This document shows positions 2,827 through 33,081 of a stretch of 64,000 nt of DNA, piece after piece. This DNA comes from Cyanobacteria bacterium auto_48_18 (GTDB taxonomy: Bacteria; Cyanobacteriota; Vampirovibrionia; Obscuribacterales; Obscuribacteraceae): NCBI GenBank assembly GCA_036170915.1, contig JAVHQC010000030.1, positions 1-64,000 on the forward strand, read 5' to 3'. Under the pieces are notes generated by a model that made no database searches, was not told the DNA's origin, and saw only the letters and a program-made list of their open reading frames with translations. The translations under genes were made by a program, and so were the position numbers. Position 1 is the first letter of the stretch. Each line of letters begins with the position of its first letter.

Positions 2827-3008
2827 AAAATATCAGTTCAGTGCGCGAGGTCAGGAGTAATGTGTAAAGACTTATTATGCTCTATATCGACATTTTTATT
2901 AGGCAACAGTATATCATTTTTAAACATATGCGACCCTTGAAGCTGGCTTTCAGTCTGCAGGCGGCTCTTTAGAGCGCTGACCTTTTGACCAAAAGGCGGG
3001 CAACAATA

Positions 3009-4956: not shown

Positions 4957-5652
4957 ATGCCGACAATTCTTTTCGTGGAAGACGACATCGACTTGACCGA
5001 AATGGTCAATGAATGGCTCACGGCTGAAGGTTATACCCTTGAAGTCGCCTATGACGGTGATGAGGGCTGGGAGACGTTAAAACAGCAAGATTATGACGTC
5101 ATCATTTTAGACTGGCAGTTACCTGGTCTTTCTGGTGCCGAAATCTGCCGCCGTTATCGTGACGGCGGAGGCGTTGCACCGGTAGTAATGCTCACCGGTC
5201 GAGCCGAAATCGCCGACAAAGAAGAAGGCTTCGGTATTGGTGTCGACGACTACGTCACCAAGCCTTTTAATTTAAAGGAACTTTCAGCCAGACTGCGGGC
5301 GCTTTTACGCAGACCCCACACTGGGGTAAAAAATGTTTTGACTCACGGCAATCTTGAGCTCGATCTGGTTAAACGCAAAATCACCAGGGGTGGTGCCATC
5401 ATGCAACTCCTGCCTCAAGAATTTGATTTGCTTGAATACTTTATGCGCCGTCCAGATGACAGCATTGCTGCCGACATACTTCTGCAGCGAATTTCCAGTG
5501 TCAAAAATCAGGCCGACGCCGTAAAACTAAATAATTCTATTAAACAAATTAATCAGAAGCTTTGTCTGGCCGATGACGAGCAGCCTGTGATTGAATTTGG
5601 CGAAGAAACAGGCTACGGGCTGAGAAAGCAAAGTAAAAGTAGCGATCAATAA
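4957..5652 (+). CDS. OmpR-family response regulator
   Basis: VEDD, LDWQLP, DDYVTKPF receiver motifs. C-terminal winged helix is divergent. Confidence 0.9.
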   Translation: MPTILFVEDDIDLTEMVNEWLTAEGYTLEVAYDGDEGWETLKQQDYDVIILDWQLPGLSGAEICRRYRDGGGVAPVVMLTGRAEIADKEEGFGIGVDDYVTKPFNLKELSARLRALLRRPHTGVKNVLTHGNLELDLVKRKITRGGAIMQLLPQEFDLLEYFMRRPDDSIAADILLQRISSVKNQADAVKLNNSIKQINQKLCLADDEQPVIEFGEETGYGLRKQSKSSDQ

Positions 5653-5683
5653 GAAAGTCGTGGCTTTCTGGTATTCTTTAAAG

Positions 5684-6121
5684 ATGCCAGAGCATAAACA
5701 CGTCTCAACCATTAGCCCCAACGCCAAAATGACTAAGGGCGCCAGAAAAGTACTCGAGTACCTTGAGCGCGCTCATGATATGACCAGCGCGCAAGATATT
5801 CACGGCTTGATGCGCACTGAAGATCCCAAAGCTCCTGGCCTAACTACGGTCTACCGCTCACTTGAGTCTCTGGTTGGGCAAGGTCTCGTTCAAGCGGTGC
5901 AACTGGGCGATGGCGAGCGCCGCTACGAACTGGTACGGCCTGGGGAGCATCATCATCACCTGGTGTGTGAAGCCTGTCGCACAAGCTTACACCTTGACGA
6001 ATGCCTCATAGAACAATTCGAAGACAGCATCAGAAGCAATTATGGTTTTCAAATAAAAGGGCATGTGCTTGAGATTTTCGGTCTCTGTCAGGATTGTAAC
6101 CTGAAGCAACGCAAGCGCTGA
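5684..6121 (+). CDS. Fur/Zur-family transcriptional repressor
   Basis: GLTTVYRSL, HHHHLVCEAC and C-terminal CQDC. Start at ATG 5684 (alternative GTG 5660). Confidence 0.92.
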   Translation: MPEHKHVSTISPNAKMTKGARKVLEYLERAHDMTSAQDIHGLMRTEDPKAPGLTTVYRSLESLVGQGLVQAVQLGDGERRYELVRPGEHHHHLVCEACRTSLHLDECLIEQFEDSIRSNYGFQIKGHVLEIFGLCQDCNLKQRKR

Positions 6122-6124
6122 ACC

Positions 6125-6652
6125 ATGGCTGAGTTAAAGAACACTGCCGAAAATAGCCAGGAGAAAACCATTCTCTCGCTGGATAATCTCGGCATTTTTG
6201 CCTCTGTATTGTGCCTGATTCATTGTCTGGCCATGCCCTTTATCGTGGCCGCTATTCCATTTATAGGAATGAAATGGCAGTGGTTGCAGAGTGAAGCCAC
6301 AGAAAACATATTGATTGCGCTGATTATCGGTTTTGCCGTGTTTGCCATCATTCCTGGCTATTACGCCCATAAAAAGCCAGTGGCCCTGGCCGGTCTGGTG
6401 AGCGGCTTGTCTCTAGTGGGAGCAGTTGCACTTTTGCGGGGTCAATTTCCTGCCAATCTTGAACTGCCTCTAATTTCAGTAGGCAATTTACTATTAGTCG
6501 GAACACATCTGCTCAATCGCAAACTCACTCACGGTAGTTTCATTGCTCATAAAAACTGTTCCTCAGACGCCCACCCGCAGGGCGCCAGTGCTTGCGCTCA
6601 CGGCCGAGAGAATACTGCTGAGCCGAACCCATCAAACATTGACCAGCATTAA
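6125..6652 (+). CDS. MerC-domain membrane protein
   Basis: LDNLGIFASVLCLIHCLAMP signature, four TM segments, His/Cys-containing tail. Confidence 0.8.
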   Translation: MAELKNTAENSQEKTILSLDNLGIFASVLCLIHCLAMPFIVAAIPFIGMKWQWLQSEATENILIALIIGFAVFAIIPGYYAHKKPVALAGLVSGLSLVGAVALLRGQFPANLELPLISVGNLLLVGTHLLNRKLTHGSFIAHKNCSSDAHPQGASACAHGRENTAEPNPSNIDQH

Positions 6653-6723
6653 CATTGGCCTTAACCTTACCTTAGTGCACTTGGAAAGATACTGACATCA
6701 GCATTACAGAGCTGGAGTTCGCA

Positions 6724-6861
6724 ATGGCAGCCCTTTTATTTTACTCAATCGTGATTACCGGCGCGGCCGTCTTTTTGCTCGCCGCCGCTCATGACGAGGT
6801 CACAGCCGTGGTGAGAATGTTTGTTGATATGTTCACCAGAATTCGCCACTGGGCCGACTAG
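6724..6861 (+). CDS. Small 45-aa single-TM protein (not in ORF track)
   Basis: GGAG at 6714-6717, ATG 6724, MAALLFYSIVITGAAVFLLAAAHDEV...HWAD, TAG 6859-6861. Confidence 0.5.
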   Translation: MAALLFYSIVITGAAVFLLAAAHDEVTAVVRMFVDMFTRIRHWAD

Positions 6862-6974
6862 CATTGGCATCGTATTTAGTGGCAAACAAAGTTAACGCTA
6901 CGGGCATGCTGGGTTTCTCAATCTGACCCGCCTCACCAAGCACGGTTGAAGAATTTCGCCAAACCGGCGAAACT

Positions 6975-7787
6975 ATGACAATGAACATTGATTCTTATGT
7001 AGTCGGTTTTTCATTAATCGCCGCAGTTTCGTTGTTGTCGGTGCTCGGTTTGCTTTTTGTGCGCCGCACTTTCCACCTCGAAAAATTGAAAAGCTGCCAT
7101 GAAGTAGGCGGTTATCTGCTTTCGGTAGTCGGCACCATGTATGCCGTGTTGCTTGGTCTAATCGTGGTGGACGCCATGACTAAATTTCAAACTGCGCGCA
7201 CTATCGTTGAACAAGAGGCTAACTCTTTAGCTGATGTCTTTCTCTTAAGTGGCAGTTTCCCTGAAAAGAAAGGCAACAAAATCCGCATTCTCTGCAATTC
7301 ATATGTCAAACAGGTATTAGAAGACGAGTGGCCGGCCATGGAAAAAGGTGGTGTCAGTCTGCCAGCTCGGCGCGCGGTGATTGAGTTGATGAAAGAAGTG
7401 ATGGACTTCGAACCGGTAACTGAGAATCAAAAGGCGATCTATCCCATAGCCGTACAAGAGGCCTGCCAGGTCTGGGATTTTCGCCGAGCGCGCACCAACA
7501 TGGCTCAGCATGGCATTCCGGTGGTGGAATGGTCAGTGCTTGTGATTGGGGCCCTAGTGACAATCATCTTTACTTATTTCTTCGGCCTAGAAAGCGCCGG
7601 AGCCCAAATGGCAATGACCAGTATGGTATCGCTGCTGATATCACTAAACATGTATCTGGTGGTGCTTTTCGGCTCACCATTCTCAGGCGATCTTATAGTC
7701 AGCTCAGACGCTTTCAGAGTTGATCAAAAGATTTTTGATAATCAGCTAGGATTCAAGCCAGAAGCGACTGATTCTAAGATTCAATAA
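6975..7787 (+). CDS. DUF4239-like (bestrophin-like) membrane protein
   Basis: VVGTMYAVLLGLIVV...EANSL...EWPAM...PFSG pattern. Confidence 0.75.
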   Translation: MTMNIDSYVVGFSLIAAVSLLSVLGLLFVRRTFHLEKLKSCHEVGGYLLSVVGTMYAVLLGLIVVDAMTKFQTARTIVEQEANSLADVFLLSGSFPEKKGNKIRILCNSYVKQVLEDEWPAMEKGGVSLPARRAVIELMKEVMDFEPVTENQKAIYPIAVQEACQVWDFRRARTNMAQHGIPVVEWSVLVIGALVTIIFTYFFGLESAGAQMAMTSMVSLLISLNMYLVVLFGSPFSGDLIVSSDAFRVDQKIFDNQLGFKPEATDSKIQ

Positions 7788-7802
7788 ATAGTTTCGGGAG
7801 AC

Positions 7803-8165
7803 TTAGTGATGATTAGTCCAGCTTACTGGCGAACACTTCTGGAAAAACACGCCAACATGATTGTCGAAGTCTCTGAAAAATTCTTTCCAGATCAACCATC
7901 TTTCTTTCTGGCGTAATCTGTTAACCATTTTCATACGTGAGCAGCCGTCTTCGCGTTCTTCGTTTTTAAAAACACGGGCAGCATTGCGGCCGGCTAGAGT
8001 GTCGTCTCTCATCAAAGAGCGGTAGCCTGCAGAAAGTGTCACCACATCTTGCTTTATCTCAGCGGTATCACGACGTGCAGCCAACTTGGTTGAAATCAAG
8101 GAGCTTTTGCCGGCATTGGTGCCCACCACAGGATCAGATGCACGCAAGATCGTCGGAGATGCCAT
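7803..8165 (-). CDS. Hypothetical protein
   Basis: 120-aa ORF with an AGAGG RBS upstream. Fills the gap between genes. Confidence 0.5.
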   Translation of the reverse strand: MASPTILRASDPVVGTNAGKSSLISTKLAARRDTAEIKQDVVTLSAGYRSLMRDDTLAGRNAARVFKNEEREDGCSRMKMVNRLRQKERWLIWKEFFRDFDNHVGVFFQKCSPVSWTNHH

Positions 8166-8421
8166 TTTTTGCTATTCCTCTATCAGTTTTGCTATCGATC
8201 AGTGTAACGCTCACGGATAGCCACTTTTCAGCTCAGTTATTATCCCTGACAAGTGCCGATAAGACAATACGCAAGCACCAATAATCGGTATTCAAGATGC
8301 TGCCAGCAACGTTCTCATTTGCCCACAATAAATTGTCCGCCGCCACCTGGCCGAGCTTTCAGGCACCACTGGTAACACCGAGAGCAAGTCAAGATTTAAT
8401 TTACGTGGGCTGAAAATATAT

Positions 8422-10548
8422 TCAGTCGGCAGCCGCTGTGGCAGCAGGCTTTCGTCTGATCTCAAAAAGCAGCACTGCCAGGTAAATGAGCACTGCGATC
8501 CAGGCCAGAGCTTTGATGCCGAACGCCATAGAGGCATACTCAATGGTAACCCCTAAAAGCCCTCCCATCATGTTGAAAGCCAGTGCGCGACTGGGCGCCA
8601 GCGACTGTTTGAAAATGGTGGAAAAGACCGTGCCAGCGAACAATAGCGGACAGAGGAAAATAGCTGTACCCACGGCCATCGCCAGAGTGGTATTCATACT
8701 GTTGAGACTATTGACATCAACCAGATTGGATAACAAAACTGTCACCATTGTCAAGCCCACAAGTATGGTTACCGACTTAGTTGGCAAGCGTGCAGCCAAG
8801 ACGTTGCCAAGTAATATTGCCACCATCACGCCACCAATGACGATACTGTTTACCGTCCACGTGGCACCACATAACAGCGACATAGCCGACATGCCTCTAA
8901 CTTCCAAAAGCATGAAACCCATACCAAGAAAGAACATTTGCCAGTTGAGAGCTGAGGCGCTTCCTTCCATCACCAGCTTCGAAACAGGCAAAAGGCTTAG
9001 TAGAAGCACGGCTATGATGGGCAGGAAATAAACTAGAGGAATGCCACGTTCTGGCAAAAACAAAAACGGCCAGTCATCAGTAATTTCAGGGACTGTACTG
9101 TTCAGATTAACCACGCGAGGCGGATGAGAAAAATTCAGAGCAGAAGCGTCTTTGATTGTGGGGCCAGCCACTAAAAATCCGGTAGGCATGGAAGACACCC
9201 AGTGATAACCCACTGGCGCAGTTTTAGTGGCCAGATAAAGGTCTTTGCTGTGCCTGTCAAATAGCCAATCAGGATGGCAAATAAAACAGACAGCAATGTA
9301 ACCGTCGGGTTTCAAAAGCTTGGCAGCATCTTTGTATGCGTCTACTGTGAAAATAAAATTGTCCGTACGCAACGACGACAGTGACGAAAAGGCAGTGTGA
9401 CTGTCTAGCATGGCATAGACGATGATATCGTATTTGGTGCGGCAATTTTGCAGGTAGGTTCGGGCATCCATGATATGCACTGACACCTTAGGCGAGTCAT
9501 ATGGATGTTCAGGGTGTAGTTCTTTACCAAGATCATAAATACAACGATCAAGCTCCACCGCATCGATATGAGAGGCCCCGCACCTAAGCGCCGCCGCCAC
9601 GTCACTGCCGCTGCCGGAGCCCAAAATCAGAACATTAGGATGCTCTTTATTGACCACGCGAAACGATCTTTCATAAAAATCAAGCATGATTTTCTTTTTT
9701 TCTTCGCTTACTTGAGCGAGCATTTCAGGGCCGCAATTGAGCATGCTCTGAAAGCTGTCGTAATTGATAAATATGTCATAGCCTACATCAAGAGTCTTAC
9801 TGCCCTCCTGCATTCTGGCTTTACTGACATCGATACGATAGTAAGGTGACCATACGGTTTTAACGTAGCCGTCATGAAAGAGCATCTTCGCCATATATGG
9901 TGCCAGATAACATGAATAAGCAATGCCCAAAACAATGAGAAAAACTGGCGAGATACGCCGGTCCACAAGCAAATAAAGCACGCCCGCTACCACCAGCCAG
10001 ACCCCTGGATCAAGTGCAAAATTGCTGAGCACACTGAATAAAACAATGCCTGCCAGAGCTCCGGCCACGTTAATTGAATAGGCCGTGAGCGGTTTTAGTT
10101 TGTCGAAGAGTTGGCCGGTTTGCTGACCCAGGCCCACAAAAATTGAAGCCGATAGAGCAAACACTGCAACCATAATTGCCAGATTAATCACGGTGCGCCC
10201 CATGCCGTGATCCTGAAAACCATAGTCACCAAAAAACATCACTTTAGATGTATCGAAGATGGTCATGTGCGTCAAATTGAGAGCTATGGCCACAATCACA
10301 AGGCCTGCAAAATAAAGCAAACTAATGCTCGACCACTTCATGAAATCGATTTTTCGATCGGTCCACAAAAAACCCAGACCAAGTCCGAGAAATGCAGCCA
10401 TCAAAGGCAAATTTTTGAAGTAAGCAAAGACACGAATTTCGGCAGAGAGCCAGCGAATGACGAGCATTTCGCAGAAGAGAGACAGCAAACTAATGAGAAA
10501 AAGCCGCCAAATTACTTGCTTCTGCACTGATTTTTGATCGGCCGTCAT
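8422..10548 (-). CDS. Membrane-embedded spermidine-synthase-like SAM-dependent transferase
   Basis: N- and C-terminal TM bundles flank WSPYYRI, VLILGSGSGSDV, AVELD, DARTYL, TDDWPF. Confidence 0.8.
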   Translation of the reverse strand: MTADQKSVQKQVIWRLFLISLLSLFCEMLVIRWLSAEIRVFAYFKNLPLMAAFLGLGLGFLWTDRKIDFMKWSSISLLYFAGLVIVAIALNLTHMTIFDTSKVMFFGDYGFQDHGMGRTVINLAIMVAVFALSASIFVGLGQQTGQLFDKLKPLTAYSINVAGALAGIVLFSVLSNFALDPGVWLVVAGVLYLLVDRRISPVFLIVLGIAYSCYLAPYMAKMLFHDGYVKTVWSPYYRIDVSKARMQEGSKTLDVGYDIFINYDSFQSMLNCGPEMLAQVSEEKKKIMLDFYERSFRVVNKEHPNVLILGSGSGSDVAAALRCGASHIDAVELDRCIYDLGKELHPEHPYDSPKVSVHIMDARTYLQNCRTKYDIIVYAMLDSHTAFSSLSSLRTDNFIFTVDAYKDAAKLLKPDGYIAVCFICHPDWLFDRHSKDLYLATKTAPVGYHWVSSMPTGFLVAGPTIKDASALNFSHPPRVVNLNSTVPEITDDWPFLFLPERGIPLVYFLPIIAVLLLSLLPVSKLVMEGSASALNWQMFFLGMGFMLLEVRGMSAMSLLCGATWTVNSIVIGGVMVAILLGNVLAARLPTKSVTILVGLTMVTVLLSNLVDVNSLNSMNTTLAMAVGTAIFLCPLLFAGTVFSTIFKQSLAPSRALAFNMMGGLLGVTIEYASMAFGIKALAWIAVLIYLAVLLFEIRRKPAATAAAD

Positions 10549-10685
10549 GCCAGCTCCGCTTAAGTCGTGAATTAGCTTTACAGTAAACCACAGTCAACCG
10601 CTAGCGAGATCTACAAATGTGCCTGCAAATCCACGCGGGTAACTTATTTGAGTGCTAAAAGGGGCAGAGTGGGTAGAATTGGAGT

Positions 10686-12221
10686 ATGGCATCCGGCGAA
10701 GAACAAAAGAAAAAAGTAGATGAGGAGAGTGATCTCTTCGCACAACTGCCTGGATATACGCCTTTTGCAGGCAATAATCCAGGTGAATCTACAGCAGCGC
10801 AACAATATCAGCCGCAAAGCGGCCCAATATTTGCTCAGCCACATCCTCCTGGTCAGCCACAGCCTTCAGGCCAGTCGTCTGGTCAGCCGTCGGCACCGAT
10901 CAATCCGTCGCATCCGCCCCAACCGGCCGGGCCTCCGACTCAAAACCCGTGGTTTCCTACTCAGCCAGAAGCGACACAACCGCCAGCAGCTTACCCTGTC
11001 AATGCTGGTTATGTTGGTCCAAGCCAACCGCTAGCACCAAACGGCATTGTCTTACCCCAATTGCGGCCGCAAGATGACCCAAACTCAAGCGAGTATATCC
11101 CTCGCACACCTGTACTGAACGCTCCCGCGCCTAATCCACACAGCCCCTGGACTCCTGTTCCTGAGCCGAAATGGGAACTCTTTGTTGAAGAAAATCGCAA
11201 TCAACCTCAGCCGCCGGTAGCGCCGCCACAAACCAAGCCTTTACCAGCTGGTGGCAGTCAGGCTAATCCAATCCGTTTTAATGCTTTGCCCATAGTTACC
11301 GGTCAAAACTATCAAGACTCTAATTATGAACAGCCGGTCTGGCCTGGGGCACCACAAGCGAATGGCAACCATACGGCACAGCAACAGAACGGTTCAGCCC
11401 AGAGCCAGTTTGCTCCAGCACAGCAGGGCGCTTATTTGTCGTCAACTGAGGCTGAACAACAGGCACAAGCAATTTATCAAGCACAGCTCGGACAGCCGGG
11501 AGTAAGCAGCCCACTTGATATAAATCAAAATCAAAATCAAAACCCAAATCAAACCAACCAGCAGCAATGGCCTAATGCCAAGCCTCAACCAAGAGTTAGT
11601 AATTTTGAAGGGGCCAGTGGCAAACCAAAATGGCGCAATAAACTTCTCAGTGATGCAGGTAATGCACAGCAAGAGGAGTTGCCACCACAAAGCCTGGGTT
11701 TGAGCTTCAGCAAGAATGACATTCTTGGTATTGCCACCTACAACTTAAATGTCACCAAAGATATTCTCACTAATCCACAGGGCTATTTCCAGACTCTGCC
11801 TCTCACAGGTGGGTTCGGAGAGCCGCTGCTCTACACCGTATTTACTTGTATTCTCAGTTCGATTATGTGTGCTATCGGCAAGCTCAACCCGTTGATGTTT
11901 TTCTGGGCTTTTATTGTCAGCTTCATTTCAGTCACCGTGGGAGCGGTTATTGTTGATCAAGCTTTCCGGCGCATGGGTGGCAAAGGCGATCTGGAAGGAA
12001 CATTCAGAGTGCTGGCATTCAGCAAAGCTACATTTGTGTTTGCCTGGATTACTCTAGGGCCCCTTTCGCTGGGTATGATGCTGGCCACCATGATTACGGG
12101 CTACATGAACTATATTGGGCTGAGTCGAGTGCATGGGCTCTCGCCAAAAAATACAGCAATTATTATTGCGTTGATGAGCGTACTCAGCCTGCTCTTCCGC
12201 TGGACCTGTCCCGGAGTTTAA
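10686..12221 (+). CDS. YIP1-family membrane protein with long Pro/Gln-rich N-terminus
   Basis: About 340 aa of low-complexity P/Q sequence, then ILTNPQGYF and about 5 TM segments. Confidence 0.7.
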   Translation: MASGEEQKKKVDEESDLFAQLPGYTPFAGNNPGESTAAQQYQPQSGPIFAQPHPPGQPQPSGQSSGQPSAPINPSHPPQPAGPPTQNPWFPTQPEATQPPAAYPVNAGYVGPSQPLAPNGIVLPQLRPQDDPNSSEYIPRTPVLNAPAPNPHSPWTPVPEPKWELFVEENRNQPQPPVAPPQTKPLPAGGSQANPIRFNALPIVTGQNYQDSNYEQPVWPGAPQANGNHTAQQQNGSAQSQFAPAQQGAYLSSTEAEQQAQAIYQAQLGQPGVSSPLDINQNQNQNPNQTNQQQWPNAKPQPRVSNFEGASGKPKWRNKLLSDAGNAQQEELPPQSLGLSFSKNDILGIATYNLNVTKDILTNPQGYFQTLPLTGGFGEPLLYTVFTCILSSIMCAIGKLNPLMFFWAFIVSFISVTVGAVIVDQAFRRMGGKGDLEGTFRVLAFSKATFVFAWITLGPLSLGMMLATMITGYMNYIGLSRVHGLSPKNTAIIIALMSVLSLLFRWTCPGV

Positions 12222-25618: not shown

Positions 25619-26275
25619 ATGAACACAACGGTCCAGATAACACCAGCACCTGCCAAGACCACTTCGCCCAGGCGCTCGCGCTTTCCTGGCAAAGAGTCCG
25701 GTTCGGTTTCGTTCAACCTGACAGCCCTTGGCCGTCAGTTGCTTAAAGAACAAGCCGCATCCGCCAGCGTTTCGAATGGCGATTACGTAGAAATGCTTAT
25801 TCGTGAACGCGCTGGCTTGGCCCCCTTGAGATTACCCCCTCAAGCCAAACAGACAGGCCCTAAAGGTGGTGCCAAATCGTTCTTCTTTGGTAAGAACCGT
25901 GGAACCACAACAGCCGTTTGCGTAACCCCTATGGCACACCGTTTGCTCGACGAACAAGTCGCTGCATCACGTATGAGCCGTGGAGATTACATCGAATATC
26001 TCTTGCGCGAAAAAGCGGGTCTAATTGAAGAGACCTTCAGAGCTTATGCTGCTCAACAACAAGCCGCCGCTGCAGCAGCCGCTGCCGCTCCTGCTATTGC
26101 ACAAACAGCACAAGTGACTGCTCAACCACAAGTAAACTTCGCTCCTCCTGCCATACAGAACGTACAACCTGTGCCACCGGTACAAACAGTACAACCTGTG
26201 CAACAGCCAGTTGTTGAAGTGACATATGCTCAGCCTGTCATTACACCTGTGACCGACTGGAATTCTGGTAGCTAA
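25619..26275 (+). CDS. Protein with two tandem ribbon-helix-helix-like repeats and an A/Q/P/V-rich tail
   Basis: Internal repeat ...LLKEQAASASVSNGDYVEMLIRERAGL / ...LLDEQVAASRMSRGDYIEYLLREKAGL. Confidence 0.65.
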   Translation: MNTTVQITPAPAKTTSPRRSRFPGKESGSVSFNLTALGRQLLKEQAASASVSNGDYVEMLIRERAGLAPLRLPPQAKQTGPKGGAKSFFFGKNRGTTTAVCVTPMAHRLLDEQVAASRMSRGDYIEYLLREKAGLIEETFRAYAAQQQAAAAAAAAAPAIAQTAQVTAQPQVNFAPPAIQNVQPVPPVQTVQPVQQPVVEVTYAQPVITPVTDWNSGS

Positions 26276-26347: not shown

Positions 26348-26980
26348 TTAATTGCCAAACAATTCTTGTGCCCCAGACTCGGCTCCCTTGTCCATATTAA
26401 CGTCGGCAAAAGTGCCCACGGTTTTCAGACCCGCCGGAATAGCCAACCAGTCTTTAGGCGGAGTGACTATGCGGCACGACAGCGTCTGCATGGCTACAGT
26501 GACGTTATTGCGAAAACTGGTGTAGCGAAATTCAACCGGCAGCAGTGAACATGACGGCACTCCATAGATCTGCTCTAAAATCACACATGCCTTAGTAGGC
26601 AAATTAAGTTGAGCAGCGTGGTAAACCGCTGAACGTGGATATGAGAGGTTTATCAGCTTTTGCTTTAGCTGGACGACCTGCTGACGCACCCACTGGTCAG
26701 AAGTGGCATACCTTTCGCATTTAAATCCAGATAATTCACTTTGGCCTGTGCGTACTACCGGAGTTAACCATATGCCGGGAATCCCTATGACCGCCAGCGA
26801 GTGCCACTGTTCGTGCACTGGCCGAAAATTCACAGGGGCAGGCCGCCAGATCGCCCCAGACCTAGACGAAAAAGCAACTGCCCGCCAGACGGGCGCCTGG
26901 GCAACAAAGGTAATTCCTGAACGCTTGCAAGCGGCTCTAAGTCCAGTTTTATTGATTAATAGGTCAAATTCGCCAAGAAT
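26348..26980 (-). pseudogene. 3' part of host gene interrupted by the IS6-type transposon
   Basis: Joins in frame to 31318-31485 once the element and one TSD copy are removed (MHHKTL|ILGEFDL). Confidence 0.85.
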
Positions 26981-26988
26981 AAGCGTTT
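26981..26988. repeat. Left 8-bp target-site duplication AAGCGTTT
   Basis: Identical to 31318-31325 and abuts the IR. Confidence 0.95.
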
Positions 26989-27005
26989 GGCTCTGTTGCA
27001 AAAAT
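26989..27005 (+). repeat. Left terminal inverted repeat
   Basis: GGCTCTGTTGCAAAAAT, IS6/IS6100-type end. Confidence 0.95.
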
Positions 27006-27013
27006 CGACAGGC

Positions 27014-27042
27014 TTGACAGGGCTCTACACTTCGATTATTCT
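27014..27042 (+). promoter_or_regulatory. Sigma70 promoter of the ars operon (probably leaderless), with overlapping candidate ArsR operator
   Basis: TTGACA(27014)-17 nt-TATTCT(27037), 6 nt before the ATG. Imperfect dyad TTCGATTATTCTGGAA. Confidence 0.75.
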
Positions 27043-27048
27043 GGAAAT

Positions 27049-27348
27049 ATGAAAACGAACGATGCAGTTAAGGCCCTTGGAGCTTTGGCTCAAGAAGCCC
27101 GCCTGGAAATCTTCCGGTTATTGGTCCGCAAAGGTGCCGATGGAATGGCGGCCGGAGATCTGGCGGCGCATTTCTCGATGCCAGCGCCAACTATGTCCTT
27201 TCACTTGAAAGAGCTTAGCAATGCCGGTCTTATAGCTTCTCGGCGCGAAAGTCGCTCAATTATTTACGCGGCCAACTACGGTCATATGCAAGAGCTATTG
27301 GGCTTCTTGATGGAAAACTGTTGTGCCGACAATGGAGGTAAGTGTTAA
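27049..27348 (+). CDS. arsR: ArsR-family repressor (C-terminal CC type)
   Basis: ALAQEARLEIFRLL, TMSFHLKEL, LMENCC...C. Confidence 0.93.
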   Translation: MKTNDAVKALGALAQEARLEIFRLLVRKGADGMAAGDLAAHFSMPAPTMSFHLKELSNAGLIASRRESRSIIYAANYGHMQELLGFLMENCCADNGGKC

Positions 27349-27821
27349 TGAAAAGATTCCATGTACACGTTGCAGTGGCTGATTTAGCCCAGTCAATCAA
27401 GTTCTATTCCACTTTCTTTGATGTGCCGCCATCGGTCACCAAGGACGACTACGCAAAATGGATGCTCGACGATCCACGCATCAACTTTGCTATCTCAACT
27501 CGCGGTAGAGAGCCAGGGCTCGATCATTTGGGCATCCAGGTTGACGACAGCGACGCGCTCAAACTTATTTCAACCAGATTAAAAGCCGCAGAGCAGCCAA
27601 TTTTGGAACAAGAACAAACCACGTGCTGTTATGCCAAAGCCGATAAAGCCTGGGTTCATGACCCACAAGGTATCGCCTGGGAAAGCTTCTACACAACTGA
27701 TATTGCGACAACCTATGGTGAAGACGCTGATTTTACAACCGAGACAAACTCTGCCTGTTGCGCTCCAATGCCTGAAACGGTGCCAGTTAGCATCAGTTTC
27801 GGAAAGAAGGAATGTACCTAA
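27348..27821 (+). CDS. arsI: ArsI/CadI-family metalloenzyme (VOC fold; ArsI members are C-As lyases)
   Basis: MKRFHVHVAV, LDHLGIQV, CCYAKADKAWVHDPQGIAWESF. Confidence 0.88.
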   Translation: MKRFHVHVAVADLAQSIKFYSTFFDVPPSVTKDDYAKWMLDDPRINFAISTRGREPGLDHLGIQVDDSDALKLISTRLKAAEQPILEQEQTTCCYAKADKAWVHDPQGIAWESFYTTDIATTYGEDADFTTETNSACCAPMPETVPVSISFGKKECT

Positions 27822-28243
27822 TGAAAGTAATTTTTGCTTGCGTCCATAACGCCGGGCGCTCACAAATGGCCGCAGCATTTTTCAACAAGCACGCGGACAA
27901 ATCCAAGGCTCAAGCTGTTTCAGCCGGTACCCAACCCGGCGATAAGGTACATGATTGCGTTTTGCAAGCAATGAAAAAGGTCGACATTGATCTCTCGGGC
28001 GTCAAGCCGCAGCTCTTGACGGATGAACTGGCTGCCGGGGCAGATTTGCTGATAACCATGGGATGTGGCGAAGCCTGCCCTTACGTACCAGGGCTGAAAC
28101 GACAGGATTGGCCATTACCCGATCCAAAAGGCAAAGCTGATGACGAAGTCTGCGAAATTCGCGACGAAATCAGGGCGAGAGTCTTGAGGTTGTTAAACGA
28201 TCTCAATGCGCTTGATTGCTGCGACTTAGAGACCGCAAAATAA
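27821..28243 (+). CDS. arsC: Arsenate reductase (LMW-PTP fold)
   Basis: CVHNAGRSQMA, TMGCGEACP, DWPLPDP. Confidence 0.93.
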   Translation: MKVIFACVHNAGRSQMAAAFFNKHADKSKAQAVSAGTQPGDKVHDCVLQAMKKVDIDLSGVKPQLLTDELAAGADLLITMGCGEACPYVPGLKRQDWPLPDPKGKADDEVCEIRDEIRARVLRLLNDLNALDCCDLETAK

Positions 28244-29319
28244 TGACCGACACGATTATAAAATCAAGCGAACACACTGACAGCAAAATCGGTTTTTTTG
28301 AAAAGTGGCTTACTGTTTGGGTTTTTCTTTGCATTGGCATCGGCATTACTCTTGGTCAAATTGCTCCTGGGCCGTTCAAATTGATAGCCTCTCTCGAAAT
28401 CGCCCGGGTTAACGTACCTGTCGGCATTTTGATTTGGCTGATGATCATTCCGATGCTGCTGAAAATTGATTTTGGCGCATTACATCAGGTCAAACAGCAC
28501 TGGAAAGGGGTACTGGTCACACTATTTATAAACTGGTGCGTTAAGCCATTCTCGATGGCTTTGCTTGCTTACATATTCATCAAAGTTTTGTTTGTGCACT
28601 ACTTGCCTCAAGACCAAATTGATAGCTATGTGGCTGGGCTAATTCTTCTTGCAGCGGCACCCTGTACGGCTATGGTCTTCGTCTGGAGTAATTTGACGGA
28701 CGGAGATCCGTATTTCACTTTGACCCAAGTAGCAGTGAATGATTTGATCATGGTGTTCGCGTTTGCCCCGATAGTGGGGCTTTTGCTTGGTTTGTCATCG
28801 ATCAAAGTGCCATGGGACACGCTGCTAATCTCAGTCGGTCTGTACATAGTAGTTCCGGTAATTCTGGCTCAGGTAGCCAGATATCTACTTCTCAAACAAG
28901 GCCAAAAGACTTTTGATGCTGCGCTCAAAGCCTTGTCGCCGGTCTCATTATCGGCACTATTAGCTACTCTCGTGCTGCTGTTCGCTTTTCAAGGTGAAGC
29001 GATAATCAAACAACCTTTTGTTATAGCCCTGCTTGCTGTGCCGATTTTGATTCAAGTCTATTTCAATTCGGCTCTGGCGTATCTTTTGAATCGTCAGCTA
29101 AAAGTGGCTCACAACGCTGCTTGCCCGTCGGCTCTGATAGGTGCAAGCAACTTTTTTGAGCTTGCAGTAGCAACTGCCATAAGCTTATTTGGGCTTCACT
29201 CGGGTGCTGCTTTGGCTACGGTAGTGGGCGTTCTGATTGAAGTGCCAGTCATGCTATCCGTGGTCAAAATTGTCAATTCGACTAAAGGCTGGTATTCAAA
29301 AGGGTCAACACGTGCATGA
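28243..29319 (+). CDS. acr3: Acr3 arsenite efflux transporter
   Basis: LAAAPCTAMVFVWS, GASNFFELAVA, VGVLIEVPVML. Confidence 0.95.
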   Translation: MTDTIIKSSEHTDSKIGFFEKWLTVWVFLCIGIGITLGQIAPGPFKLIASLEIARVNVPVGILIWLMIIPMLLKIDFGALHQVKQHWKGVLVTLFINWCVKPFSMALLAYIFIKVLFVHYLPQDQIDSYVAGLILLAAAPCTAMVFVWSNLTDGDPYFTLTQVAVNDLIMVFAFAPIVGLLLGLSSIKVPWDTLLISVGLYIVVPVILAQVARYLLLKQGQKTFDAALKALSPVSLSALLATLVLLFAFQGEAIIKQPFVIALLAVPILIQVYFNSALAYLLNRQLKVAHNAACPSALIGASNFFELAVATAISLFGLHSGAALATVVGVLIEVPVMLSVVKIVNSTKGWYSKGSTRA

Positions 29320-29735
29320 TTACTGAAGACGATAAACAATTTCTGGAATCGTTTGAACAATGCTCATTGGGCGGGAAATGCTGGACGCATGCGGCGCACG
29401 TTCGCATCGGTTGGATAATTCTTGAAACGTCAAATAATTTTGACGAAGCCTTGACTCGTCTGAGGTCGGGCATTATGAAGTTCAACTCGACGCAAAACAG
29501 TATCGGCTATCACGAGACAATTACCGTAGCCTTTGCTCGAATCATCGCCTCCAGGCGCAATGCGGGCGGCACGTGGAAGATCTTTTCTGAAGTGCACACG
29601 GACTTGTTTCAAAAGAATTGCTTGGAAGAGTTTTATAGCGCCGAGTCTTTAAAATCGAACGAAGCTCGAAAAAATTTCATTGAGCCTGATCGAGCAAAGC
29701 TGCCGGACATTAGTCACCATCAAGCGATCAGGTAG
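29316..29735 (+). CDS. Hypothetical His-motif protein, last gene of the ars operon
   Basis: ATGA overlap with acr3. WTHAAHVR, YHETIT, FIEPD. Confidence 0.75.
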   Translation: MITEDDKQFLESFEQCSLGGKCWTHAAHVRIGWIILETSNNFDEALTRLRSGIMKFNSTQNSIGYHETITVAFARIIASRRNAGGTWKIFSEVHTDLFQKNCLEEFYSAESLKSNEARKNFIEPDRAKLPDISHHQAIR

Positions 29736-30459
29736 CTTGCCAATGTTGCGTGTAAATTCCAAACTGCCGATTGATCAAACATTTTTCGGCCGCAACGCCC
29801 GGTGAACAACTGCATGTATGCCAGGTGTTCAGCTGACCTTTGTGAAAAATGCGCATAAGCTCAAAACCTCTCAGGGTAGCGAATGCAGTCTTCATAGTTT
29901 TAAAACCGCGCACAGGATTCAGCAATCGCTTTAACTTGCCATGGTCCGATTCAAGTCGATTATTCAAATACTTCACTTGCGAATGTTCTAAGTCGTTCTC
30001 GCATTTTCCAGTCTTTTTCATACTTGCGATGGCGCAGCCATAAGCGTGGTGCTTGTCTGTGTTGATTTTGCTGGGCGGGTCATTGAGACCATTCAAAGCT
30101 TTGCACAAAAACTTTTTGGCCATTGCGGTATTTCGTGAGTGTGACAAATAGAAATCGACTGTGCGTCCGCGTCGGTCGATTGCGCGAAAGATGTACTTCA
30201 GTTTTCCTTTCACTTTGATACAAGTCTCGTCGACTCGCCAGGAAGAGTCGAAAGATTGCCGCCAATACCATCTCATGCGCTTTTCCATCTCGGGGGCATA
30301 CTTTTGCACCCACCGGTAAATTGTAGAATGGTGCACTTTGATGCCGCGTTCAGCCATCATCTCCGCTAAATCGCGATAACTGATACCGTACTTGCAGTAC
30401 CAGCGGACACATTGCAAAATGAATTCGCCTTCGAAGTGACGCCACTTAAAATCGCTCAT
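29728..30459 (-). CDS. tnpA: IS6-family DDE transposase
   Basis: FKWRHF...VRWY...SYRDL, WRVDET, INTDK, NNRLESDH. GAGGG RBS. Confidence 0.95.
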   Translation of the reverse strand: MSDFKWRHFEGEFILQCVRWYCKYGISYRDLAEMMAERGIKVHHSTIYRWVQKYAPEMEKRMRWYWRQSFDSSWRVDETCIKVKGKLKYIFRAIDRRGRTVDFYLSHSRNTAMAKKFLCKALNGLNDPPSKINTDKHHAYGCAIASMKKTGKCENDLEHSQVKYLNNRLESDHGKLKRLLNPVRGFKTMKTAFATLRGFELMRIFHKGQLNTWHTCSCSPGVAAEKCLINRQFGIYTQHWQAT

Positions 30460-30497
30460 CACAGCCCTCGATATGCTTTGGATATAGACTAAAATTA

Positions 30498-30609
30498 TTT
30501 CGCATAATGGTAGAAAGGCGAAATTAAAATGCCCAAAGGAATCGCGTTGGTTGCAAAAACAGTTAAAACCGAAGGCAGTTTCGCACCTAAAAACGGAAAG
30601 GCGAAATTA
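30498..30609. repeat. Repeated dyad sites between tnpA and the recombinase (candidate res/operator)
   Basis: TTTCGCA...GAAAGGCGAAATTA at 30498-30526 and 30579-30609. Confidence 0.6.
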
Positions 30610-31284
30610 GCGGCCGTTCAAAAGATAACCAAAGTTGCGCGGCAGCATCGACTGAGTTACGAGGAGTTCGTCTCAGTCTGCCAGCAGGTCAGACTTAAGT
30701 TGAAATTGACCAAGCAAAAAAAGCAGCGTCAATTGCCAGAAATTCTCTCAATGACTGAACTGAAGCAATTTTTTCGCGCAGTACAAAATTGCGAAGATTT
30801 GCAGCATGAGCTAATGCTCAAGCTTTTGCTTTACACCGCAATTCGAGTCAGCGAGCTGGTCAACATTCGAGTGAGTGATGTTGACTTGGACGCATGCAAG
30901 ATATTTATCAACCAGGGCAAGGGCAGCAAAGATCGCTATATTTTGTTTCCATCTGGCTTTCGATTGGCACTCCGAAGTCATCTGAGCGCGACAAGCGAAA
31001 ATATTTTTCTGTTCGAATCGAGGCTCAATCAGCCCTACACCACTCGACGCATTCAGCAGATAGTCAAAGACTATTGTGAGCGCTCTGGCTTAAAACGCAC
31101 TGTTCATCCGCATCTATTGAGGCATCAAATGCTGACATACCTAACTAGCCACGGCATATCAGACGCAAAGATTCAGCTCATTAGCGGTCATGAGAGCCGT
31201 AAAAGCTTGGAGGTTTACCAACATCTCTCATTGGAGTCCGTGGAAAAGGAATATCAGCAAGCGCTTCGGGCGTTCGATGTTTAG
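30529..31284 (+). CDS. Tyrosine recombinase (XerD-like; candidate resolvase)
   Basis: Catalytic R (AIRVSEL), K (GKGSKDR), HxxR (HLLRH), H (SGH) and Y (EVYQH) all intact. Confidence 0.93.
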   Translation: MPKGIALVAKTVKTEGSFAPKNGKAKLAAVQKITKVARQHRLSYEEFVSVCQQVRLKLKLTKQKKQRQLPEILSMTELKQFFRAVQNCEDLQHELMLKLLLYTAIRVSELVNIRVSDVDLDACKIFINQGKGSKDRYILFPSGFRLALRSHLSATSENIFLFESRLNQPYTTRRIQQIVKDYCERSGLKRTVHPHLLRHQMLTYLTSHGISDAKIQLISGHESRKSLEVYQHLSLESVEKEYQQALRAFDV

Positions 31285-31300
31285 CAAAATCTGCGAAAAT

Positions 31301-31317
31301 ATTTTTGCAACAGAGCC
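31301..31317 (-). repeat. Right terminal inverted repeat
   Basis: ATTTTTGCAACAGAGCC, the exact reverse complement of 26989-27005. Confidence 0.95.
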
Positions 31318-31325
31318 AAGCGTTT
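31318..31325. repeat. Right 8-bp target-site duplication AAGCGTTT
   Basis: Identical to 26981-26988. Confidence 0.95.
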
Positions 31326-31485
31326 TATGATGCATCGACCAGGCTTGCCCTGGCCCCAAAGTTTGTGAGTTGTAGACTTTTTCAGGTTGTCGCGACTGGC
31401 CAAGATTGCTTGGCGAGCAACCAGCCGGCCTGAAGCTCGACAAAACGACAAGAGCCGTCAACAATATGGTCGATTTTAAGCGCAC
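31318..31485 (-). pseudogene. 5' part (signal-peptide-bearing, 56 codons) of the interrupted host gene
   Basis: MRLKSTILLTALVVLSSFRPAG...MHHKTL ends exactly at the TSD. Confidence 0.85.
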
Positions 31486-31565
31486 AGCTTTTGCAACATC
31501 AATAAACTAACCAACCCACCAATCACTATCAACATGATCACTATTCCCCACATCTCGAGTATGTG

Positions 31566-31592
31566 GTCACACTTTGGTCACTGAATAGTCAC
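31566..31592 (+). promoter_or_regulatory. Candidate OmpR/PhoB-type binding box
   Basis: GTCAC at 31566, 31577 and 31588 (11-bp period). Confidence 0.5.
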
Positions 31593-31689
31593 CACTTGGT
31601 TTTTCTGCGCCGTTAAGGTTAATGCATGACCAACACCGAGACCGAGACCAATACCGAGACCACAATTTTCTAACAGGGGATAACATCAT

Positions 31690-32079
31690 ATGGAATTAGC
31701 AAAAGAGAAAGTCAGTGAAGTCAGTAAGAATGCTGCGGAAGACATGCAAAAGTATAAGGAAGCCGGACAACATTTATTTGACGATTCTTACCAGTCACTG
31801 ACCAAAAAAAATGGTGCGCCAGATACCTGCGGACCAAATGATGCAGGCAAACTCCTGGACCTTTTGAGAGACTCTAAAGCTATCTCCAAAGAACCTAAAG
31901 ATTTGGAATTTCCACCACTGTTTGGACAAGGGCCTAGAAACGAAGTGATTGGCGAGAGCCGTAAGGACAACCGCGCTACCACCAACGAAGCAAGCAAGAA
32001 TGAACAGAGTACTACCCCTGGGTATCAGCCAAAACAAGAACAAAGACTGCTGCCAAACGCTAAGAGCTTCAGCAATTAG
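31690..32079 (+). CDS. Hypothetical hydrophilic protein, tandem paralogue 1
   Basis: AGGGGA RBS. N- and C-termini shared with the next gene. Confidence 0.7.
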   Translation: MELAKEKVSEVSKNAAEDMQKYKEAGQHLFDDSYQSLTKKNGAPDTCGPNDAGKLLDLLRDSKAISKEPKDLEFPPLFGQGPRNEVIGESRKDNRATTNEASKNEQSTTPGYQPKQEQRLLPNAKSFSN

Positions 32080-32111
32080 ATCGCACATTTTCTACCAGGG
32101 GATAGCGGCAT

Positions 32112-32408
32112 ATGGAAATGGAAATAGAAAAAGAGAATGCCAGTGAAGTCGAGAAAAATACTGCGGATGAAAAGGAATATGGTCACGCAAGAAAACTATT
32201 TGACGATATTTACCAGTCACCGACTGATTTTCCACGAATATCGGCACCTGAGCCGACAATACGCGTGACATGTGACGCGCTTGGTAACGGCCTCAAAGAT
32301 CCTGGATTCGGCCTAACCTTCAAAAAGAACAGTCAGTTTCTCGACTTCGACCTGCCAGTAAAACCAGACCAAATCCAGCTGCCAAATTTCAAAGCTTTCA
32401 GCAATTAG
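32112..32408 (+). CDS. Hypothetical hydrophilic protein, tandem paralogue 2
   Basis: Same RBS context. LFDDIYQS and LPNFKAFSN match paralogue 1. Confidence 0.7.
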   Translation: MEMEIEKENASEVEKNTADEKEYGHARKLFDDIYQSPTDFPRISAPEPTIRVTCDALGNGLKDPGFGLTFKKNSQFLDFDLPVKPDQIQLPNFKAFSN

Positions 32409-33081
32409 ATCTAAGCCTGTAACCAACTTTTGGTATGTTTTCGATCAAAGATTGGCTATCTTCGTTACCGTCATCAATTTTTTTGCGAATGCGTTTGATG
32501 GCGGTGCGAAGCCCTTCAGGACTGGCGTCTGAGTCAGAGACCCAGACTCTGGAAATTAGTGCTTCAGCACTAAAAACTTGATCTTTATGTCGCATAAGAA
32601 ATTCTAAAAGGGCAAAGTCACGAGGCAAGAGGTGTAACTCATTGCCATTTCGCAGAACTCGATACTTCACTGAATCAAGCTCGATGTCGCCGACCTTGAG
32701 AACAGCAGAATTAATCAGAGCAGGTCGCCTCAACAAAGCTCTAATGCGCGCGCCTAACTCCTTAATATCAAACGGTTTAGTCAAATAATCATCAGCTCCC
32801 AGGTCCAGGCCTGTTTGCTTATCAGACGTAGCCGCTTTGCCGGTAAGCATAATTACGGGCGCAGCGCCTCCACCGTCGCGGTATTCTCGCAAGATTTCAA
32901 TGCCAGAACGGTTGGGTAAATCCCAGTCTAGAACCACCACATCATAGTTTGACAGCCGCAACAGATCTGCAGCAAAAGCACCATCATGGGCCACTTCGAC
33001 AGTAAATCGCTCGCTGGTGAGCCAACCTGACACCATATCGGCCAGGTCAATATCATCCTCAGCTATCAAAATTTTAGCCAT
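32398..33081 (-). CDS. OmpR-family response regulator
   Basis: AEDD, LDWDLP, GADDYLTKPF, IKRIRKKI, VGYRL. Confidence 0.93.
   Translation of the reverse strand: MAKILIAEDDIDLADMVSGWLTSERFTVEVAHDGAFAADLLRLSNYDVVVLDWDLPNRSGIEILREYRDGGGAAPVIMLTGKAATSDKQTGLDLGADDYLTKPFDIKELGARIRALLRRPALINSAVLKVGDIELDSVKYRVLRNGNELHLLPRDFALLEFLMRHKDQVFSAEALISRVWVSDSDASPEGLRTAIKRIRKKIDDGNEDSQSLIENIPKVGYRLRSNC

Follow-up and report, generated by a model that had tools for sequence, protein, structure and literature searches.

A unit transposon with IS6-type ends, a divergent tyrosine recombinase and a res-like site as a candidate self-resolving member of the IS6 family in Obscuribacteraceae

An IS6-type unit with seven genes

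The DNA analysed here, referred to as the window, is the whole stretch of 64,000 nucleotides at positions 1 to 64,000 (forward strand) of contig JAVHQC010000030.1 from Cyanobacteria bacterium auto_48_18 (Obscuribacterales; assembly GCA_036170915.1), and it contains a 4329-bp element that we judge likely to be a unit transposon derived from an insertion sequence (IS) of the IS6/IS26 family and able to resolve its own cointegrates. The core of the element consists of two divergent genes separated by 66 bp. The first (29728..30462, minus strand) encodes an intact IS6-family DDE transposase of 244 aa, which was matched by PF13610 (E 5.8e-46) and NF033587 (257 bits against a cutoff of 125) and whose translation contains the E-DH---K motif of the IS6/IS26 family; no inverted repeat (IR)-like sequence adjoins either end of this gene. 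The second (30529..31284, plus strand) encodes an intact tyrosine recombinase of 251 aa (PF00589, E 4e-33), the proposed cointegrate resolvase, and its stop codon lies 16 bp from the right IR. The recombinase was aligned with XerA (5hxy, E 4e-27) across the RVxEL, GKGxKDR, HxLRH, GH and Y segments, which we take to contain the catalytic residues of tyrosine recombinases, and judged by sequence both core proteins look intact. A DUF4158 or DDE_Tnp_Tn3 domain, by which a Tn3 transposase would be recognised, was found in none of the seven proteins of the element.

The remaining five genes, all on the plus strand, fill the left arm. They comprise arsR, encoding an ArsR/SmtB metalloregulator (27049..27348; PF12840/PF01022 and NF033788), arsI, encoding an ArsI/CadI-family metalloenzyme (27348..27821; NF041414, scoring 135 bits where the cutoff is 116), arsC, encoding an arsenate reductase of the low-molecular-weight phosphatase type (27821..28243; PF01451, E 1e-19, with the arsenate reductase models scoring below their own cutoffs), acr3, encoding an arsenite efflux transporter (28243..29319; TIGR00832, scoring 386 bits where the cutoff is 283), and an open reading frame (ORF) of 139 aa (29316..29735). 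The last of these travels with acr3, a 64%-identical copy being located after acr3 in the related locus L137; it was assigned to no family in Pfam or NCBIfam and matched only unnamed clusters in the Atlas. As cargo, arsR-arsI-arsC-acr3 would provide arsenic resistance.

The ends of the element were defined by reading the sequence from 26800 to 31500 together with a repeat search, which identified perfect 17-bp IRs at 26989-27005 (IRR, the IS6-type terminal repeat at the transposase-distal end, plus strand) and 31301-31317 (IRL, the IS6-type repeat at the recombinase-side end, minus strand), flanked by two identical 8-bp copies of AAGCGTTT at 26981..26988 and 31318..31325 that constitute the target-site duplication (TSD). 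Tn3-family transposons have terminal repeats of ~38 bp and a 5-bp duplication, in contrast to the 17-bp IS6-type ends and 8-bp TSD of this element. At both ends, the first 14 bases of the IR agree in 13 of 14 positions with the 14-bp terminal inverted repeat consensus of IS6/IS26, GGTTCTGTTGCAAA, which starts with GG (the accessible part of Harmer & Hall, PMC6807381). The exact 14-mer occurs in only two places in the window, which are the two ends of the element; the other 8 of the 10 matches to it in the window contain 2-3 mismatches and equal in number those obtained in shuffled sequences. Elsewhere in the 4.9-Mb, 39-contig genome no further site matching the 17-mer at <2 mismatches was found, nor was any second copy of the transposase or close relative of the recombinase.

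The left flank of the element recurs at full length and at 90-92% identity in two genomes of the same genus, G435 and G425, and in both of these the sequences matching the two flanks meet, overlapping by 8 bp; one AAGCGTTT takes the place of the 4329-bp element. A single copy at the uninterrupted target demonstrates that the whole 4329-bp unit is one insertion, and the mobility of the element as a unit is evident from this empty site, the IS6-type ends and the 8-bp TSD. A preliminary description of this DNA had reported the perfect 17-bp IRs and 8-bp TSD, one intact IS6 DDE transposase in the centre without IRs of its own, an intact divergent tyrosine recombinase ending 16 bp from the right IR and five cargo genes in the left arm, all of which were confirmed.

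With its length and seven genes, the element falls outside the short (0.7-0.9 kb), transposase-only form that characterises IS6 elements, and in the accessible text of a 2021 review of the family the cargo of IS6-family elements is usually moved by two-copy structures (PMC7986276). One reading that was weighed is a pseudo-compound transposon of IS26 style that has decayed from two IS copies, or an IS nested in another element, in either case with outer IRs that would be relics or chance matches. Only one transposase gene is present, with no IR adjoining it, rather than the two direct IS copies of such a structure; the outer IRs are perfect, an 8-bp TSD flanks them and the empty site is precise; and the layout recurs with other cargo, one such element being present at three sites (see below). 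This explanation is already contradicted by these observations and we give it next to no weight. A nested canonical IS with relics of its IRs beside the transposase was also sought and rejected, the sole internal match to the 14-mer having 3 mismatches and lying inside arsI.

Recurrence of the two-gene core with different cargo

Public genomes were scanned with the transposase (22 loci) and metagenomes with the recombinase (39 loci), and the seven proteins and the IR motif of the window were mapped onto the loci found, which are designated by L numbers. The divergent pair was identified in L014, from a metagenome-assembled genome (MAG) of Cyanobacteriota, and in the metagenome loci L035 and L036, and in L013, from a MAG of Melainabacteria, the transposase was found at a contig end. 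The transposases of these four loci are 90-91% identical to that of the window and the recombinase of L014 is 85-86% identical. At the DNA level, window positions 29744-31288 are ~80% identical to L035, L036 and L014, and the homology ends at both stop codons.

Identity between L035 and L036 is 99.1% over 6424 bp that run exactly from IR to IR, and the two are flanked by perfect but differing TSDs, CTTTTTTG and AAAATGAC. L137 and L013, which derive from one genome, represent a third copy of this element, the flanks of which match in CCAGATTT; the two contigs break between the two core genes, where their sequences are unlike those of other cores. This 6.4-kb element is thus present at three sites, each with its own TSD, and carries on the recombinase side (L035, L036 and L137) genes for an Rrf2 regulator, an ScdA/hemerythrin protein, a globin and a NorB-type nitric-oxide reductase. 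In L013 the nitric-oxide element is inserted ~50 bp from a serine resolvase gene (993-1667), a single case that recalls how some transposons are known to target res sites. In L137 an arsR-arsI-arsC-acr3-orf139 operon (595-3834) is located immediately outside the nitric-oxide element, next to its IR at 3954, with an arsR promoter region homologous to that inside the window element; this layout may be a snapshot of cargo coming to adjoin an end.

Two further elements carry other cargo. An 8.9-kb element (L014/L126) has a TSD matching at 7 of 8 positions, and in it NicO and a CsoR-like repressor are encoded on the recombinase side and a nickel-insertion protein on the transposase side, and a 3.9-kb element (L127) has a perfect TSD and an ars operon on the recombinase side. 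The junction from the IR to arsR is homologous between the window (26989-27048) and L127 (11658-11718), the cores being only ~62% identical in protein; the ars arm is on the transposase side in the window and on the recombinase side in L127, so that the core is inverted relative to the arm.

Within the host order, the core of the window matched 29 of 107 genomes, all of one family, and adjacent divergent pairs were located by tblastn in 11 of the 20 regions that were fetched (L126-L136). Eight of these (L128-L133, L135 and L136) represent a cargo-free form of 1691-1697 bp with the order IR-transposase-recombinase-IR, in which the recombinase stop codon lies ~10 bp from its IR, much as in the window. 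With L128 as the query, positions 1-1695 were matched from IR to IR in 7 genomes including its own (76-100% identity), the DNA identity across the 6 other genomes being 76-85%, and some match to L128 was obtained in 42 of the 107 order genomes, with many of the matches lying at contig ends, where a repeat would be expected to lie. Across 401 genomes sampled from the phylum there were only 5 weak matches, all of <250 bases, four in the transposase gene and one in the intergenic region and recombinase start, and the transposase-recombinase family was not found outside the host order in the genomes searched. Among PLSDB plasmids no record covered ≥80% of the whole element; only ars genes and presumably IS26-type transposases were matched, at 60-80% identity.

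Perfect TSDs flank the elements of the window, L035, L036, L127, L128 and L137 plus L013, and the targets with 8-bp duplications are unrelated in sequence and AT-rich. No TSD was found at L129, L130, L131, L133, L135 and L136, and L132 abuts a contig end, which leaves its flank unreadable. The missing TSDs could reflect intramolecular events, recombination between copies or misassembly of MAGs, and by themselves they lend no support to tidy resolution. Across its occurrences the pair shows 60-91% protein identity and a fixed divergent geometry: the two-gene core is conserved and its cargo varies on both arms. The preliminary description had proposed a search for recurrent linkage of transposase and recombinase, for pairs bounded by the same IR motif with variable cargo, and for other copies and an empty site. 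Each of these was found: the linkage at 11 loci in 10 order genomes, at 2 metagenome loci and in one element over two contigs, such pairs with differing cargo, and the copies and empty sites as L035/L036, L137 plus L013, a contig of the public run X2 (described below), G435 and G425.

A transposase tree of 23 rows was calculated after removal of L014, L036, duplicates and contig-truncated sequences of <230 aa. A single clade (support 94/98) takes in all 14 transposases linked to a recombinase and is sister to canonical single-gene IS copies from Nitrosomonas. The same clade includes three transposases with no adjoining recombinase, one of which (L142) abuts a contig end, and at L144 an IR located 52 bp upstream of the transposase start gives the canonical layout. 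At L141 (1-1620 and 4881-6344), a 487-aa open frame contains a same-clade IS6 transposase, upstream of which there is no recombinase; a Tn3-family transposase has left remnants ~4 kb away, and this locus may be a rearranged or decayed copy. The simplest history would be that a canonical IS6 element gained a resolution cassette between its upstream IR and its transposase gene, and that the same cassette or its relatives also moved among Tn3 and TniAB elements.

The res-like site and the relatives of the recombinase

Two copies of an inverted pair of TTTCGC/GCGAAA half-sites were identified around the start of the recombinase gene. Site I (30498..30523), the proposed crossover site, has half-sites 14 bp apart and lies in the 66-bp intergenic DNA, and site II (30579..30606), the proposed accessory site, begins 81 bp downstream of site I, has the same half-sites 16 bp apart and occupies recombinase codons 17-26. 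The pattern gave 3 matches in the window where 0.05 would be expected; the third (62202-62228) was taken as a chance match, being located within a 615-aa ORF far from any recombinase gene. In a DNA alignment around the recombinase start, the register of sites I and II is the same whether the locus is linked to IS6, Tn3 or Tni. Under the strict pattern, 9 of 11 Tn3-linked rows and 5 of 12 IS6-linked rows contain all four half-sites, and in the remaining 7 IS6-linked rows both half-sites of site II are kept and site I is degenerate. The Phe codon in site II is TTC in 27 of the 28 rows with Phe in register (the other row having TTT), and every codon that precedes the conserved Lys has the form NCG, whether it encodes Ala, Thr or Pro. 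Such invariance of codons argues for a constraint on the DNA itself and not on the protein alone. Because site I is situated between the divergent genes, recombinase bound there probably also controls both of them. A promoter scan of 30350-30650 returned two weak sigma-70-like matches on the plus strand, one ending just before site I and the other overlapping it, which are consistent with regulation at site I yet too weak to be used.

The internal position of the res-like site bears on whether the tyrosine recombinase, rather than the DDE transposase, might be what moves the element, through excision and integration. Many integrative elements owe their mobility to a tyrosine recombinase, but the site is not at the ends of this one, which are instead IS6 IRs flanked by 8-bp duplications at unrelated AT-rich targets, and movement of this kind is considered very improbable.

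The best matches to the recombinase among PLSDB plasmids are 36-46% identical, indicating that no close relative is present in that database; several adjoin Tn3-family transposases, the nearest such plasmid relatives being integrases without a gene name at 36-44% identity, and on a Deinococcus plasmid a 38%-identical relative follows a Tn3 transposase. Closer relatives (53-76% identical) were found at the metagenome loci L037-L056, where in 11 of 20 the recombinase is divergent from a Tn3-family transposase (DUF4158 and/or DDE_Tnp_Tn3); several of the other 9 are short contigs or have the recombinase at a contig edge. The Pfam scan covered 102 of 122 called ORFs, the 20 omitted being far from the recombinase in L056, L057, L059, L060 and L062. 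At the Tn3-linked loci (L037 and L039-L048) the recombinase has 245-254 aa and is 60-76% identical to that of the window, the res-like site lies between the divergent genes, and those partner transposases that are complete, at 7 of the 11 loci, have ~980-1040 aa. Relatives with no adjoining transposase were found at L050, L051, L053, L139 and L140.

Tn5053/Tn402-type elements (TniA, TniB, TniQ and TniR) are replicative and need a resolvase, the one described, TniR, being a serine recombinase. Members of the same tyrosine recombinase clade were found beside transposition machinery of this type, which differs from that of the window element. In L138 the recombinase gene (8352-9095) is divergent from a gene for a TniA-like protein with a Mu-transposase C-terminal domain (9196-10917) that is accompanied by TniB (10838-11413), and in L145 TniA (5475-7112), TniB (7116-8030) and the recombinase (8093-8839) are colinear. 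The presence of this recombinase clade with sites I and II beside TniA/TniB may constitute a second undescribed pairing.

A maximum-likelihood tree was calculated for 37 recombinases, for which long N-terminal read-throughs were trimmed and L014 (equal to L126), L036 (nearly identical to L035) and L127, L133 and L134 (<200 residues matched) were dropped. The window group (4 rows, 100/98) and a cargo-free group (7 rows plus L145, 100/100) are placed within a clade of 21 (99/97) that also includes 5 Tn3-linked recombinases and L138, and a second clade outside it contains 6 Tn3-linked recombinases and L049. At least 2 changes of the IS6 label are required on well-supported branches of this tree. 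Taken together, the sequences show the recombinase and its site to be homologous to modules of Tn3-family and TniAB transposons, and what the preliminary description had put forward as an analogy with a Tn3-like layout proved to be homology, the nearest relatives of the recombinase being divergent from Tn3 transposases with the res-like site in common.

The same relationships would be compatible with a recombinase that is a passenger, namely a captured resolution cassette of a plasmid or Tn3 element, in an element whose IS26-like cointegrates are resolved by host homologous recombination. Copies with a broken recombinase persist (L127, L133 and L134), recombinase relatives occur with no adjoining transposase at the loci listed above, and the transposase clade includes three recombinase-free members, though L142 abuts a contig end. 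A passenger would not, however, be expected in a 1.7-kb form that consists of the two genes alone and is kept from IR to IR at 76-85% identity in 6 other genomes; the pair has retained 60-91% protein identity, its divergent geometry and a conserved site, and every one of the 14 recombinase-linked transposases belongs to the single 94/98 clade. On balance a passenger is improbable, and a recombinase that serves the element as its resolvase is preferred.

Predicted cointegrate resolution and its setting among known transposons

Tn3, Tn5053-type and IS6 elements share replicative transposition by way of a cointegrate, and it is for this reason that the cassette shared among them is read as a resolvase. 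In the proposed mechanism, the IS6 DDE transposase would act on the two IS6-type IRs of 14-17 bp and move the whole 4.3-kb unit by the copy-in route, producing an 8-bp TSD and a cointegrate of donor and target with two direct copies of the element. The tyrosine recombinase would then recombine the two copies at the res site in the start of its own gene, with site I as crossover and site II as accessory site, and would separate the replicons independently of host RecA, in the manner of TnpR, TnpI or TnpS/T in Tn3-family transposons. Cointegrate formation has been shown for other members of the IS6 family (accessible text of PMC7986276).

Public sequencing runs provided a further view of the site. 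Near-identical DNA accounting for ≥55% of the words sampled from a 5.3-kb stretch around the element (26500-31800) was present in 17 public runs from 8 studies (including drinking water, wastewater and groundwater), and one of these runs may be the source sample, and contigs of four runs (X2, X3, X14 and X18) were compared with the window, stretches with no contig cover (beyond 30518 in X14 and outside 27070-27898 in X18) being uninformative. A 16.8-kb contig of X2 spans exactly 26989-31317 with a left flank that differs from that of the window, and in X3 the left end of the element again lies in a flank unlike the window's. Among the 40 differences listed of 195, and presuming these to be the first by position, X2 has 11 at 28623-30367, none at 30368-30541 and 29 at 30542-30657; the total of 146 differences in X2 indicates that its right arm is about as diverged as the recombinase of L035. 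The X3 contig fits 29294-30528 with 5 differences and diverges thereafter, and in X14 one contig ends at 30518 and another fits up to 30518 and continues unlike the window. In X2, X3 and X14, a near-identical arsenic arm thus passes into a diverged or unlike recombinase arm within ~20 bp of site I. L036, in turn, resembles L035 except over 30323-30442, where its identity to the window is 93-100%. Contigs of X18, an RNA library in which DNA carry-over is possible, match 27070-27898 (arsR, arsI and the start of arsC) with zero differences. A change of relatedness at res is a classic mark of resolvase-mediated exchange between related transposons.

These shifts raise the question of whether the recombinase is mainly a device for shuffling or capture, exchanging arms and cargo between related elements or site-bearing replicons. 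Such a role would agree with the changes near site I in X2, X3 and X14 and the window-like patch in L036, with cargo that differs on either side of a conserved core, and with an IR-arsR junction that the window and L127 share but that is attached to the transposase side of the core in one and to the recombinase side in the other. Exchange at res is nonetheless a known by-product of Tn3-family resolvases, the common context of the recombinase clade is three cointegrate-forming transposase families, and the junctions between cargo and core coincide with the two stop codons and not with the site. The opposite-side arms are themselves left unexplained by exchange at res, since this would keep each arm on its original side, that of the transposase or that of the recombinase. 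A primary role in shuffling therefore appears unlikely, if marginally less so than a passenger.

Several points weigh against the preferred reading, in which the element resolves its own cointegrates. Kinship and context are the grounds on which we infer that the transposase forms cointegrates, that the recombinase resolves them and that sites I and II have the parts assigned to them. The N-terminal domain of the recombinase is short, the XerA alignment starting at residue 34 opposite XerA residue 100, and the conservation of site II is partly at the protein level because this site lies in coding sequence. The recombinase gene of L127 was recovered as three tblastn pieces and those of L133 and L134 only in part, and damaged genes in copies that persist imply that the recombinase is not needed for persistence. 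The element is present in single copy in its own genome, and only 1 of the 7 cargo-free copies with readable flanks (L128) has a matching TSD. The changes of relatedness near site I, for which the X2 counts depend on the order of the listed differences, could also be produced by homologous recombination in the best-conserved stretch and were observed in contigs, not in reads.

Among known systems, the element resembles IS26, IS6100 and IS257 in its transposase family (NF033587, PF13610), its 13/14 terminal-repeat match and its 8-bp TSD. These ISs are 0.7-0.9 kb long with one gene in the accessible descriptions, whereas members of the present lineage have at least 1.7 kb, a second gene and cargo within a single pair of IRs, and differ from the IS26 type by the tyrosine recombinase and res-like site placed between the upstream IR and the transposase. 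The accessible part of the 2021 review states that no resolvase is known in the IS6 family and that resolution depends on recA (PMC7986276). A single IS6-family member, ISDsp3, is listed there with a passenger gene, one hypothetical (PMC7986276); it is similar in having an extra gene inside IS6 ends, but the entry as available gives no pointer to a recombinase or a recurrent family.

Tn4430, Tn5401 and TnBth4 are alike in being replicative transposons with a single tyrosine recombinase gene and a multi-subsite site just upstream of it. The irs site of Tn4430 contains four TnpI-binding subsites just upstream of tnpI (accessible text of PMC7157771), compared with the four predicted half-sites in two inverted pairs found here. 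In contrast to the TnpI transposons, the transposase here is of IS6 type and the genes are divergent, and the likeness to TnpI is one of layout. In the accessible part of the same source, TnpI is present in only 3 of 190 catalogued Tn3-family members, all of them colinear (PMC7157771), from which it follows that the divergent Tn3-linked form reported here is itself little described. The metagenome Tn3-family elements (L037 and L039-L048) share the recombinase clade, the divergent geometry and sites I and II with the window element and have a Tn3 partner instead of IS6. A XerC-like recombinase borne on a Tn7-like transposon was considered and set aside as a different system, which in the accessible text uses a dif-like site and host XerD and has no IS6 component (PMC11014353). 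No description of an IS6 transposase paired with a tyrosine recombinase was found in the full-text literature, which was searched mostly at abstract level and with ISfinder and TnCentral outside the scope. The element combines modules of the IS6 and Tn3 kinds in a pairing that we have not found described in print, in keeping with the novelty suggested in the preliminary description and with the statement on IS6 resolvases in the available part of the 2021 review.

The immediate surroundings of the insertion include two further features. Just to its right (31665-32411) is a tandem pair of diverged units of ~425 bp, 75-89% identical, each encoding a protein of 98-129 aa with a similar C-terminal motif. 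To its left (25619-26275) is a 218-aa ORF with two internally repeated segments and an Ala/Gln/Pro-rich tail, which is conserved within the genus at 87-92% DNA identity.

IS26 and related ISs play a central part in spreading resistance genes, and their textbook limit is the lack of a resolvase, because of which IS26-type cargo moves only as two-copy structures dependent on host recombination. An IS6 lineage with a resolution module of Tn3 type, and with cargo moved inside one pair of ends, would mean that this limit has been overcome in nature, and would offer a testable system for cointegrate processing. More broadly, and with somewhat less confidence than we attach to self-resolution, we favour the view that the cassette of tyrosine resolvase and res is a portable module exchanged among Tn3, TniAB (Tn5053-like) and IS6 elements, three groups of cointegrate-forming DDE transposons unrelated to one another, and that its capture made RecA-independent IS6 unit transposons, which became widespread in one order of non-photosynthetic relatives of the cyanobacteria, gained metal- and nitric-oxide-resistance cargo on either arm and swapped arms at res. 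Annotation pipelines would label such elements "IS6 transposase + integrase" and overlook the unit. With one recombinase clade and its site serving IS6, Tn3 and TniAB partners, these elements would illustrate the modularity of transposons.

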